Positions 3,001-6,000 of a stretch of 8,834 nucleotides of DNA are shown here, in pieces. The stretch comes from a virus (taxonomy: Duplodnaviria > Heunggongvirae > Uroviricota > Caudoviricetes): positions 1 to 8,834 of IMG/VR virus record IMGVR_UViG_2737471846_000017, one strand, 5' to 3'. Position numbers: made by a program. Position 1 is the stretch's first letter, and each line of letters starts with the position of its first letter.

Positions 3001-6000
3001 GGGCAGCATGAGACGCAGCGACGAAGCATCACCGACATCATCTGCGAAAACTGCAAATACCTTCCAACGAAACGCTCCAGAAATAAACGCAAGCCAATCC
3101 CAAAAGAATCTGACGTAAAAACCTTCAACTACACGGCTCACCTGTGGGATATCCGGTGGCTAAGACATCGTGCGAGGAAAACAAGGTGATTGACGCGATG
3201 ATTTATTCGGGGCTATATTCCTCACGCGCCAGCAAAATCTGGCGTCGGGATTAGCACCCCGGATATCGAAACGGTGCATAACCGCGCTGGCGGTTTTTTT
3301 ATGCGCTAAGCACAGTCACATTCGCGATTTATGGCGGGCTGTGTGGGGGAGCCGAAAGGCTCGCCGGATGTTTCGACCGGTAGTGCTAACCCCGCACAGT
3401 TCGCCACCACGATGATTAGCACCTGACGGTGGCGAGGTAAAAATAATCGAAACGCGAGGTCATTATGGCTGTTCAAATTTCTGTCGAAAACCTTTCCCCT
3501 GTTACCTATAACCAGATCCCCGTAATTACTACTGAACTGTTGGCTCACCTTTACGGAACAAAAATCAAAAACATTTCTGATAACTTTCTGAACAACACGA
3601 CGCGATTCATGCCCGGAAAGCATTACTTTAAAATTGAAAAAAACGAATTACGCGAGTTTAAGAACAGACCCGAAACAATCGGGTTAGTTGGTAAAAATGC
3701 CCGCTCCCTCATCCTCTGGACAGAACGCGGAGCAGCCCGTCATGCAAAAATGCTCGAAACCGATCAGGCGTGGGAAGTGTTCGAAAAACTGGAAGACTGC
3801 TATTTCAGCCAGGGCGAGAAAAATACTGGCAAACAAGAGAAGAAGCTCAACGGGCTTTCCGCAAAAGAAACAGACAGCCTTGTATGGCTGTGGGATTATG
3901 CCAACCGCTCACAGGCATTGTTCCGTGAGTTGTATCCCGCATTAAAACTGATTCAGTCTGGCTATTCCGGCATATGCCACGACTACGGCTATGAGTTCTC
4001 GTATATCATCGGGAGGGCGAGGGGCGTTTTAATTAATCACACGCGGGATATAGATATTTATGAGCCTGACGGGCCGACGAACCTTCTGGCATGGGAAAGG
4101 CTTAAGAACAAAGAGTTGCCGCCTTCACTGCATCGCTACTGACAATTGACAACTTAACAAACCCAGCTTCGGCTGGGTTTTTTATTGCTGAATTTTCAAT
4201 GTGAGAGGACATGACAATGAATGAGCTGATAAATAGCAATGCCATCAAAATGACAAGCATTGAAATCGCTGAGTTGGTGGGAAGCCAACACGGTAATGTC
4301 AGAATATCAATAGAACGTCTGGCAAAGCGTGGGGTGATTCAACTTCCTTCAATGCAAAAAGTTGAAAATAAACAAACAATTATCCCTAACAAATTCACAA
4401 GCGTGTATATATTCGAAGGCGAACAAGGTAAGCGAGACAGCATTATTGTCGTCGCTCAGTTGTCGCCGGAATTCACCGCTCGTCTTGTTGACCGTTGGCG
4501 AGAGCTTGAAGGGGCAACCGCGAAAATACCACAAACCTTTTCTGAGGCATTGCGCCTTGCGGCCGACCTTGAAGACCAGAAGGCTGAACTGGAGAAACAG
4601 CTTGCTCTCGCAGCACCTAAAGTTGAGTTTGCCGATCGAGTTGGCGAGGCCAGCGGAATTTTGATTGGAAACTTTGCAAAGGTTGTTTGTATTGGTCCAA
4701 ACAAACTGTTTGCGTGGATGCGCGATCACAAAATCCTTATTGCTTCAGGTGCCCGGCGCAATGTGCCAATGCAGGAATATATGGATCGCGGCTATTTCAC
4801 AGTGAAAGAAACAGCGGTCAATACAAATCACGGAATACAGATATCGTTCACCACAAAAATCACCGGGCGTGGTCAACAGTGGCTGACCAGAAAGCTGCTC
4901 GATAACGGAATGCTGAAAGTAACAGGGGAGGCTGCTTAATGGCTAACCTACGCAAAGAAGCGCGCGGCAGAGAATGCCAGGTACGTATTTACGGCGTATG
5001 CAATGGCAATCCTGAAACTACAGTTCTGGCACATTACCGGATGGCTGGAATTTGCGGAACGGGAATGAAGCCTGACGACCTGATCGGCGCATGGGCTTGT
5101 AGCGCGTGTCACGATGAAATCGACCGACGCACCCATAATCTCGACAACAAAGACGCCAGACTTTACCACCTCGAAGGCGTGATCAGGACGCAGGCGATAC
5201 TGCTGAAGGAGGGGAAGATTAAGCCATGAACGAATATCAGTTTGTGCTTCCATATCCGCCGTCGCTGAACACCTACTGGCGAAGACGGGGAAGCCAATAC
5301 TACATCAGCGATAAAGGCCAGAAATACCGAAAAGACGTTCAGAAAATCATCCGCCAACTCAAGTTAGACATTTTCACCAAATCACGACTCCGTATCAAAG
5401 TCATCGCAGACGTTCCAGACTCCCGCCGCCGCGACCTCGACAACATCCTGAAAGGTTTACTCGACTCCCTTATCCACGCCGGATTTGCGGAAGACGACGA
5501 GCAATTCGATGACATTCGCGTAATTCGTGGTGTGAAAGTATCAGGCGGACGGCTTGGAATAAAAATCACCGAACTGGAGAACACATGAACAAAGCATTCG
5601 AACGATATATGCGCCAGCGTTATGGCAATCGCTACGATCTTACCCGCGATGCTTACGGCTTCTACTGTCGTGAGGTTGTGAAACGAATGTTTGAAGTGTG
5701 GTGTCATTGCAAAGGATAGAGGGGAAGACGATGAGACTCGAAAGCGTAGCTAAATTTCATTCGCCAAAAAGCCCGATGATGAGCGACTCACCACGGGCTA
5801 CGGCTTCTGACTCTCTTTCCGGTACTGATGTGATGGCTGCTATGGGGATGGCGCAATCACAAGCCGGATTCGGAATGGCAGCCTTCTTCGGTAAAGCTGG
5901 GCTCAGTAAATCGGATGAACAGCTTGCAGTTCAGGTGCTGGCGAGATATGCGATGGATACTGCTCCAAAGAACGTAAGGAAGGCTGCCGGGAGTGAGTTT

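Follow-up and report, generated by a model that had tools for sequence, protein, structure and literature searches.

Which role does a gene with control signals of its own play inside the nin region of a lambdoid prophage? We addressed this question for ant, a gene in an 8,834-nucleotide (nt) stretch of DNA (hereafter the window; positions 1 to 8,834 of the IMG/VR virus record IMGVR_UViG_2737471846_000017), which represents the early-right/nin region of a lambdoid prophage and is 100% identical to the chromosome of Escherichia coli 2013C-4830. The initial annotation of the window had regarded the gene as an autonomous, moron-type unit whose C-terminal half could carry an effector or sensing function. 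Analysis of the locus indicated that positions 3190–4185 very probably form a self-contained, riboregulated antirepressor cassette of the P1/P7 immI kind, the 5′ part of which is orthologous to isrK-orf45-anrP of Gifsy-1. The unit, with its own promoter and terminator, had been delimited correctly, whereas the proposed effector or sensing function was not retained.

The antirepressor gene and its mosaic cassette

The ant gene (3465–4142, plus strand) encodes the 225-residue protein that had been predicted, and direct reading of the sequence places its Shine-Dalgarno (SD) motif, GAGG, at 3456–3459, 5 nt before the ATG, in agreement with the ribosome-binding site claimed for it. Pfam analysis of the protein revealed an ORF6N domain at residues 12–96 (3498–3752) and a P22_AR_C domain (PF10548) at residues 126–197 (3840–4055; 83.3 bits versus 22.4, E 1.3e-23). 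The N-terminal half had been recognized as resembling a known DNA-binding domain, which the ORF6N match bears out, but it is not the only half with a relative. The supposedly uncharacterized C-terminal half carries the C-terminal domain of the P22 antirepressor in place of the suggested effector or sensing region, and residues 122–225 share 83% identity with residues 197–300 of P22 Ant. A match of this half to a well-characterized antirepressor is one of the two observations that the initial annotation had named as together speaking against its proposal; the likeness to P22 Ant had already been noted for phage phi24B by Fogg et al. (PMC3064807). Comparison with AnrP of Gifsy-1 revealed 93% identity over the first 116 residues, after which the C-terminal half of AnrP, which differs from that of the window protein and has no Pfam match, is replaced by P22_AR_C. 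At the N terminus, Pfam detected ORF6N and no P22_AR_N, and P22 Ant and AnrP have no Pfam domain in common. Over its full length, the window protein matches PHROG 377 'anti-repressor Ant' (E 6.5e-80). A sequence search of the PDB with Ant returned only chance-level matches (E ≥ 0.016), so that neither of its domains has a solved relative, and PADLOC gave weak candidate matches on the ORF6N part (PDC-S05, E 7e-7, about 1e-6). The product of ant is a known prophage antirepressor, Ant, that is, a regulator of phage immunity and induction and not a lysogenic-conversion or sensing effector.

Alignment of the cassette with Gifsy-1 and P22 revealed a composite structure. Positions 3189–3812 align with the promoter, isrK, c4 and the 5′ part of anrP in Gifsy-1 (79% over 635 nt), while positions 3827–4183 align with the 3′ portion of P22 ant together with the terminator annotated for it (81.6% over 358 nt), which places the mosaic junction within ant at approximately 3812–3827. 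The Gifsy-1 homology begins at 3189/3190, at the −35 hexamer of the promoter, and the P22 homology ends at 4183, in the T-run of the terminator. Judged by these alignments, the cassette at 3190–4185 is a two-part mosaic, Gifsy-1-like in its 5′ part and P22-like in its 3′ part, and its origin and boundaries are established at the level of sequence. The intrinsic terminator of ant (4159–4184, plus strand) consists of a 9-base-pair (bp) stem with a UUCG loop (TTCG in the DNA) and a T-run. Its hairpin (4159–4180; −15.1 kcal/mol, z score −3.9) is very strong, as had been stated, and P22 has the identical stem-loop, ACCCAGCTTCGGCTGGGTTTTTT, where its ant terminator is annotated (16012–16035). Phage HK022 has the same flanks without the cassette, in the order ninE-ninF-roi-ybcO-rusA, so that the 1-kb cassette stands in place of the 171-bp ninF and is no pure insertion. 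With its own promoter and terminator, and lying between genes that are near-adjacent in HK022, the cassette has the structure of a moron in the sense of Hendrix; its homology points to self-regulation of the phage rather than to a benefit for the host.

Phage phi24B and related phages of Shiga toxin (Stx) 2a (Fogg et al. 2011, PMC3064807) have virtually the same cassette at the corresponding site, with 99.2% identity over 3100–4300, and the phi24B gene, 99% identical to that of the window, is annotated as ant there and in relatives. Deletion of ant from phi24B left superinfection unchanged and reduced a pR′-lux reporter to 27–31% of wild type after norfloxacin, a defect that was complemented (PMC3064807). 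In uninduced phi24B lysogens, ant mRNA was weakly detectable (PMC3064807). By analogy, Ant of the window would bind and inactivate a CI/C2-type repressor, as the lowered late-promoter derepression in the phi24B knock-out (PMC3064807) suggests. The '24B_1/d_ant' system of phi24B involves a different gene from the nin-region ant.

Another possibility is that Ant is chiefly a regulator that uses ORF6N to bind specific DNA sequences, as is thought for Roi and for KilA-N-type proteins, and does not work by contacting a repressor protein, which would make 'antirepressor' a misnomer. Iyer, Koonin and Aravind reportedly placed ORF6N in 2002 among the N-terminal modules with predicted DNA binding that have been reshuffled between Bro/KilA/Ant proteins. 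Since P22 Ant and AnrP share no domain, either half could carry the anti-repressor activity, and the PDB search offered no solved structure of an Ant relative. However, both halves derive from proteins that have been shown to act in derepression, P22 Ant and AnrP (PMC4825925), and the near-identical phi24B protein promotes derepression of the late promoter (PMC3064807); we consider a primarily DNA-binding role unlikely.

The IsrK and c4 RNAs in front of ant

Comparison with Rfam revealed that the region upstream of ant, which had been described as non-coding, contains matches above the gathering scores to isrK, C4 and c4-a1b1. Its σ70-like promoter (3190–3219, plus strand) is composed of the −35 hexamer TTGACG (3190–3195), an 18-nt spacer and the −10 hexamer TATATT (3214–3219). 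This site agrees with the consensus at 10 of 12 positions, is the counterpart of PisrK in Gifsy-1 and of P1c4 in P1, and is the sole promoter-like site in 2900–4400; none was found near 3400–3450, where an independent promoter had been anticipated. From alignment to the Gifsy-1 +1 position, taken from the A107 numbering of the paper, the transcription start is predicted at 3226, which is the first position of the Rfam isrK match and lies 7 nt past the −10 hexamer. A LexA-box pattern (CTG-N10-CAG) was not found in 3150–3480. In the phi24B record, a 22-codon open reading frame (ORF), vb_24B_17, is annotated over window positions 3187–3255, that is, over the promoter and the 5′ half of IsrK; most likely it is no real gene.

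The IsrK-like small RNA (3226–3300, plus strand) matches the full RF01394 isrK model (1–77; 76.6 bits, gathering 50, E 7e-17) and forms a leader bearing the boxes a1 and b1, in line with a full-length match to RF03163 c4-a1b1 at 3213–3265 (50.6 bits, gathering 46.7). It folds into three hairpins; the second presents a1 in its loop, and b1 lies in a linker that is single-stranded. The third hairpin (3280–3295) belongs to an intrinsic terminator or attenuator (3280–3302, plus strand) with a 6-bp GC-rich stem, a 4-nt loop and a run of 7 T; it is weak (−9 kcal/mol, z score −1.2), and the terminator scan returned five terminator-like sites versus 1.9 ± 1.4 in shuffled sequences. Both terminator hairpins described in the initial annotation are present, this one with its T-run reaching approximately 3302 and the one behind ant. 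The supposedly preceding terminator, however, is the last hairpin of the isrK model and therefore lies inside the unit, where it is the internal attenuator/terminator of IsrK rather than an insulator ahead of the cassette.

The c4 antisense RNA follows at 3327–3411 (plus strand), where the full RF01695 C4 model matches with 75.1 bits (gathering 45, E 4e-15). Its minimum free energy is −49.1 kcal/mol (z score −5.6), and none of 200 shuffled sequences was equally stable. The fold is that expected of c4, with a long closing stem and two hairpins; the exposed segments are a hairpin loop of 9 nt and a single-stranded junction of 8 nt. With the annotated 77-nt c4 of P1 as a guide, the mature RNA is predicted to span approximately 3333–3408 (76 nt). 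A 3′ CCACCA and an acceptor-like closing stem are present, and RNase P would be the processing enzyme, as in the P1/P7 system, in which c4 represses both translation and transcription of ant.

The two exposed segments of c4 are complementary to boxes on either side of it, all on the plus strand. Element b′ (TGTTTCGA, 3369–3376) lies in the 9-nt loop of hairpin 2, and element a′ (GTGCTAA, 3383–3389) lies in the single-stranded junction. Within IsrK, box a1 (TTAGCAC, 3251–3257) is complementary to a′ with 7 of 7 Watson-Crick pairs, and box b1 (TCGAAACG, 3266–3273) is complementary to b′ over 8 nt, including one G-U pair. On the ant mRNA, the 7-nt box a2 (TTAGCAC, 3416–3422) is the target of a′ and the 8-nt box b2 (TCGAAACG, 3447–3454) is the target of b′; b2 ends 1 nt before the SD motif and 10 nt before the ATG. 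Box a2 starts 4 nt past the Rfam c4 match, compared with 3 nt past c4 in P1. A 31-codon ORF (3331–3426, plus strand) starts at a conserved ATG at the 5′ end of c4 and is the positional counterpart of Gifsy-1 orf45. Because its stop codon (3424–3426) falls 39 nt before the ant ATG, this ORF is probably not needed here. The box names follow the P1 record and the P1 sequence. In the GenBank record of APSE-3 (2538–2562), the a′ and b′ labels are swapped relative to the P1 record (18256–18460), with the hairpin loop called a′ and the junction b′, which may cause confusion when APSE-3 is compared with P1.

To place these elements in their family, we gathered related modules from IMG/VR and from GTDB species genomes with a pattern on c4 hairpin 1, obtaining 171 occurrences that represent 110 unique modules, of which 99 were parsed and 88 had clear boxes. 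A first IMG/VR pattern, CCGGT-N1-2-TGCNAACCCC, had returned 120 loci with approximately 19 real c4 homologues by nhmmer and was abandoned for the better hairpin-1 pattern. The 99 parsed modules contain 50 distinct b′ loops and 36 distinct a′ junctions, each of which fits the upstream and downstream boxes of its own module. On both target sides, the median complementarity is 7–8.5 for cognate versus 4.5–5 for non-cognate combinations (Mann-Whitney p 1e-19 to 1e-23), and this three-way co-variation argues for selection on the pairing. When foreign elements were placed on the targets of the window, at most 1 of 43 b′ loops and at most 1 of 32 a′ junctions equalled its own, and on the b1 region none of the 43 non-cognate b′ loops matched equally well. 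The identity of the RNA families, the complementarity of the boxes and their co-variation are thus settled as far as comparative analysis goes.

Other parts of the layout recur across the family. The T-run between b1 and c4 is present in all 88 modules with clear boxes, the end of b2 lies 7–11 nt before the next ATG in most of them, and the strict pattern TTGACn-16..19-TAnnnT occurs in 65. In a hand alignment of 15 modules, the TTGAC and TAnnnT hexamers are kept in divergent modules despite unrelated upstream flanks. An SD-like core is found inside b2 in 35 of the 44 b′ types, and the ORF at the c4 5′ end overlaps the downstream start in 9 of the 88 modules and ends earlier in 47. The unprocessed mRNA of the window may also form an alternative hairpin (3400–3436, plus strand), in which TTCGCCACC, the 3′ side of the closing stem of c4, pairs with GGTGGCGAG through a 9-bp complementarity and a2 is exposed in the loop; this hairpin appears in the fold of 3396–3470, and its stem co-varies in the alignment of divergent modules. 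Among the 75 distinct proteins encoded right after the modules, 35 carry ORF6N, 11 P22_AR_C, 10 Bro-N, 2 AntA and 2 Rha, so that the gene of the window represents typical cargo. Of 5426 complete E. coli genomes, 1854 contain homologous RNA cassettes; a single genome can hold as many as 7, and the host of the window has 4.

Across the family, a′ and b′ are combined independently of each other, a pattern suggestive of a combinatorial code of specificity; in one Symbiopectobacterium genome, for instance, two modules have b′ in common but not a′. Tandem c4 modules lie approximately 1 kb apart on some contigs (L257:2810–3837, L163:2428–3455, L036:2148–3815), and those of L257 have identical b′ and different a′ elements. 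At least five modules (L240, L254, L256, L272 and L274) are located on a single chromosome of Symbiopectobacterium purcellii.

A model for the control of ant and its alternatives

Comparison of the window with the Salmonella locus isrK-orf45-anrP of Gifsy-1 (Hershko-Shalev et al. 2016, PMC4825925) revealed homology of the promoter, IsrK, the c4-like RNA (STnc1160/orf45′) and the first 116 antirepressor codons. The two loci also share the a1/b1, a′/b′ and a2/b2 layout and the leaky IsrK terminator, leakiness being a prediction in the window. In contrast, the Gifsy-1 boxes have other sequences (a′ ACGCCAA, b′ TCGGTGAT), and the specificity therefore differs from that of the window. The 45-codon orf45 overlaps the anrP start as ATGA, whereas the ORF of the window ends 39 nt upstream of ant, and the Gifsy-1 module is located downstream of antQ, whereas that of the window is located upstream of Q in the nin region. 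In Gifsy-1, transcription from PisrK partly passes the IsrK terminator into orf45-anrP, the transcript that reads through gives rise, by processing, to an RNA of approximately 80 nt (STnc1160), and short IsrK supplied in trans raises anrP translation approximately 140-fold (PMC4825925). When the numbering of the paper is placed on the sequence, the compensatory mutants G28A/C162U and G31A/C159U (PMC4825925) map onto a1 (nt 26–32) and a′ (nt 158–164), so that the a1:a′ pairing has been tested genetically in this homologue.

The immI region of P1/P7 (c4-icd-ant; Citron and Schuster 1990) has the same order as the window, namely promoter, a1, b1, T-run, c4, a2, b2 and start codon, together with the same c4 fold and an antirepressor as cargo. 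The gap between b2 and the start codon is 10 nt in both, that of icd in P1 and that of ant in the window; ant therefore sits at the position of P1 icd, and no ORF lies between b2 and ant. Unlike P1 immI, the window has no evident C1 operator. The C-terminal domain of P1 Ant is KilAC, whereas that of the window protein is P22_AR_C, and the P1 setting is a plasmid prophage rather than a lambdoid nin region. The immI region of P22 shares with the window the C-terminal 104 residues of Ant (83% identical) and the ant terminator stem-loop, whereas its controls (mnt, arc and the sar antisense RNA) are absent and IsrK/c4 is found instead; a Pfam scan of the window proteins detected no arc or mnt homologue upstream of ant. 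Between phi24B and the window, 14 differences were counted in 3000–4300, including a 1-nt ninE deletion and one extra T in the IsrK T-run; two differing positions fall in the RNA region, neither of them in a box. Downstream of roi, the window has ybcO-rusA and phi24B has ninG-ninH, and phi24B-type records do not annotate the RNAs. APSE-3 shows the same order as the window, with isrK, C4, a Bro-N protein and a Rha protein (PMC7313666).

In these close homologues, others have demonstrated read-through, activation by IsrK, the a1:a′ pairing and the ant knock-out phenotype, and by analogy we propose a corresponding mechanism for the window. Transcription from the promoter at 3190–3219 would start at approximately 3226, and most transcripts would stop at the weak terminator (3280–3302), yielding a 75-nt IsrK with a1 and b1, while some would read through into c4, a2/b2 and ant. 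From the long transcript, c4 would be cut out; its b′ loop would pair with b2 next to the SD motif and its a′ junction with a2, blocking translation of ant and keeping the prophage repressed. IsrK, which bears the same boxes as decoys, would titrate c4 or open an inhibitory structure in cis and thereby switch ant translation on, and Ant would bind and inactivate a predicted CI-type repressor, leading to faster induction. In lambda, the terminators of the nin region are normally overridden by N. By extension, N-antiterminated transcription from pR would also cross the cassette during induction.

Several points weigh against this mechanism. The coupling devices of P1 and Gifsy-1 are missing from the window, which has no icd-like ORF and whose orf45 counterpart ends early, and the published translational-coupling step of Gifsy-1 therefore cannot apply. 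Box b2 of the window type adjoins the SD motif without containing it, as in 9 of the 44 b′ types; for this reason, occlusion of the ant ribosome site by b′-b2 pairing is plausible but uncertain. Promoter activity, c4 processing, leakiness of the terminator and repression at b2 are carried over to this locus from its relatives, and so are the binding of Ant to a repressor and the repressor that it would target. Moreover, the host prophage is probably defective, with an IS3 element and a degraded late region, and the cassette may have lost its relevance for this element. Fogg et al. (2011) viewed ant as a pR-driven early gene that leaves superinfection unaffected (PMC3064807).

This last view can be extended to a further alternative, in which ant would be a plain delayed-early gene of pR, read by N-antiterminated polymerase, and the promoter and IsrK/c4 would be inactive relics in this lineage. 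The cassette does lie inside the early-right operon, between ninE and roi and on the same strand, in a region whose terminators N would normally override according to general lambda biology. In addition, the window lacks the ORFs used for coupling in P1 and Gifsy-1, and the ant phenotype of phi24B appeared solely after induction (PMC3064807). Inactive relics, however, are difficult to reconcile with the four target boxes and both c4 elements, which are intact and perfectly matched, with the three-way co-variation of the family, with promoter hexamers that are kept where the flanks diverge, or with the position of the two phi24B differences in the RNA region outside the boxes. The ant mRNA is, moreover, detectable in uninduced phi24B lysogens (PMC3064807), and in the prophage of the window an IS3 element separates pR/cII from O-P-nin, so we regard a purely pR-driven ant as very unlikely. 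That the unit is a moron with a DNA-binding N-terminal half and a new, host-directed effector or sensing C-terminal half, as its promoter-gene-terminator layout, the same site without the cassette in HK022 and the weak PADLOC candidates on the ORF6N part (PDC-S05, E 7e-7) might suggest, is scarcely credible, given that P22_AR_C accounts for the C-terminal half, which shares 83% identity with P22 Ant, that the whole protein belongs to the PHROG 'anti-repressor Ant', that the leader is an antirepressor-control RNA system and that the knock-out phenotype concerns prophage induction (PMC3064807).

Genomic setting and implications

The genes of the window are arranged in the order O, P, a small ORF, NinB, Dam methylase, NinE, ant, Roi, YbcO, RusA and Q, followed 3′ of Q by a low-GC minus-strand ORF and then a tRNA. 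A single gene had been thought to fill the interval in which lambda carries ninF to ninI, but between ninE and Q, ant is followed by roi, ybcO, rusA and one small ORF. Comparison with phi24B revealed that ninE (3008–3189) lacks one A near 3015, so that the reading frame changes past codon 3. Translation from the ATG at 3008 gives MRRSDEAS... and ends at a stop at 3118, the conserved NinE frame corresponds to 3010–3189, and RefSeq gives a shorter NinE from 3028; ninE is probably a pseudogene or encodes an N-terminally truncated NinE. Directly 3′ of the strong terminator of ant lies roi (4211–4939), a homologue of HK022 Roi that combines a Rha N terminus with a KilAC/ANT C terminus and is a second antirepressor-like gene; in APSE-3 (3480–4211), a c4-controlled gene is likewise followed by a Rha-family gene. 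The 287-residue Q (5698–6561) contains two Antiterm (PF03589) stretches and a sub-threshold match to a DnaJ-type CXXCXGXG zinc finger, and its RefSeq start is later, at window position 5731. The minus-strand ORF (6677–7597, 306 residues), convergent with Q, has a GC content of 0.35–0.38 versus approximately 0.5 elsewhere. It had no Pfam or PADLOC match, its sole match being PHROG 7003 of unknown function (E 7e-100), and it resembles a foreign, moron-type insertion more closely than ant does.

In the host genome around the window (L279:5752–6965 and 16244–22006), the IS3 element is inserted between cII and O, and the late region of the prophage is degraded, with a frameshifted DUF1737, IS3 and IS600 fragments and truncated tail-fibre genes. 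Because of this degraded late region, the prophage is probably defective. Transcription that enters the nin region from pR may be impaired in it, in which case the promoter of the cassette itself would gain in importance. The prophage encodes a LexA-family CI (WP_001302016.1). In the RefSeq record of 2013C-4830, the gene is listed as 'phage antirepressor Ant', with no RNA gene annotated upstream of it.

Previous work has already described the gene with its two domains, the two RNAs and the mechanism, and a near-identical gene has been deleted in an Stx phage. IsrK and c4 are nevertheless unannotated in the RefSeq record of this genome and in most Stx-phage records, which is an annotation gap and no new kind of system. 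Our literature search found no paper linking c4 or IsrK with Shiga-toxin phages, and the papers that it covered regard ant of the nin region as an ordinary early gene.

One speculative extension, which we put forward with considerable doubt, is that the a′/b′ boxes serve as a two-key RNA 'barcode' networking the lambdoid prophages of one cell, in which IsrK or c4 of one prophage would switch on or silence the antirepressor of another only if both boxes match. The independent assortment of a′ and b′, the presence of up to 7 modules in one E. coli genome, the 4 modules of this host and the two Symbiopectobacterium modules with the same b′ and different a′ are compatible with such a network. Antirepressors can reportedly act in trans on other prophages (Lemire et al. 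2011). If the idea is correct, defective prophages such as that of the host could adjust how intact ones, Stx phages among them, are induced, and hence how much toxin is produced.

The practical value of the present analysis lies in annotation and in the biology of Stx phages. Since homologous RNA cassettes are present in so many complete E. coli genomes (1854 of 5426) and their RNAs are mostly unannotated, riboregulated antirepressors may be a common, overlooked input to prophage induction and hence to Shiga-toxin release.

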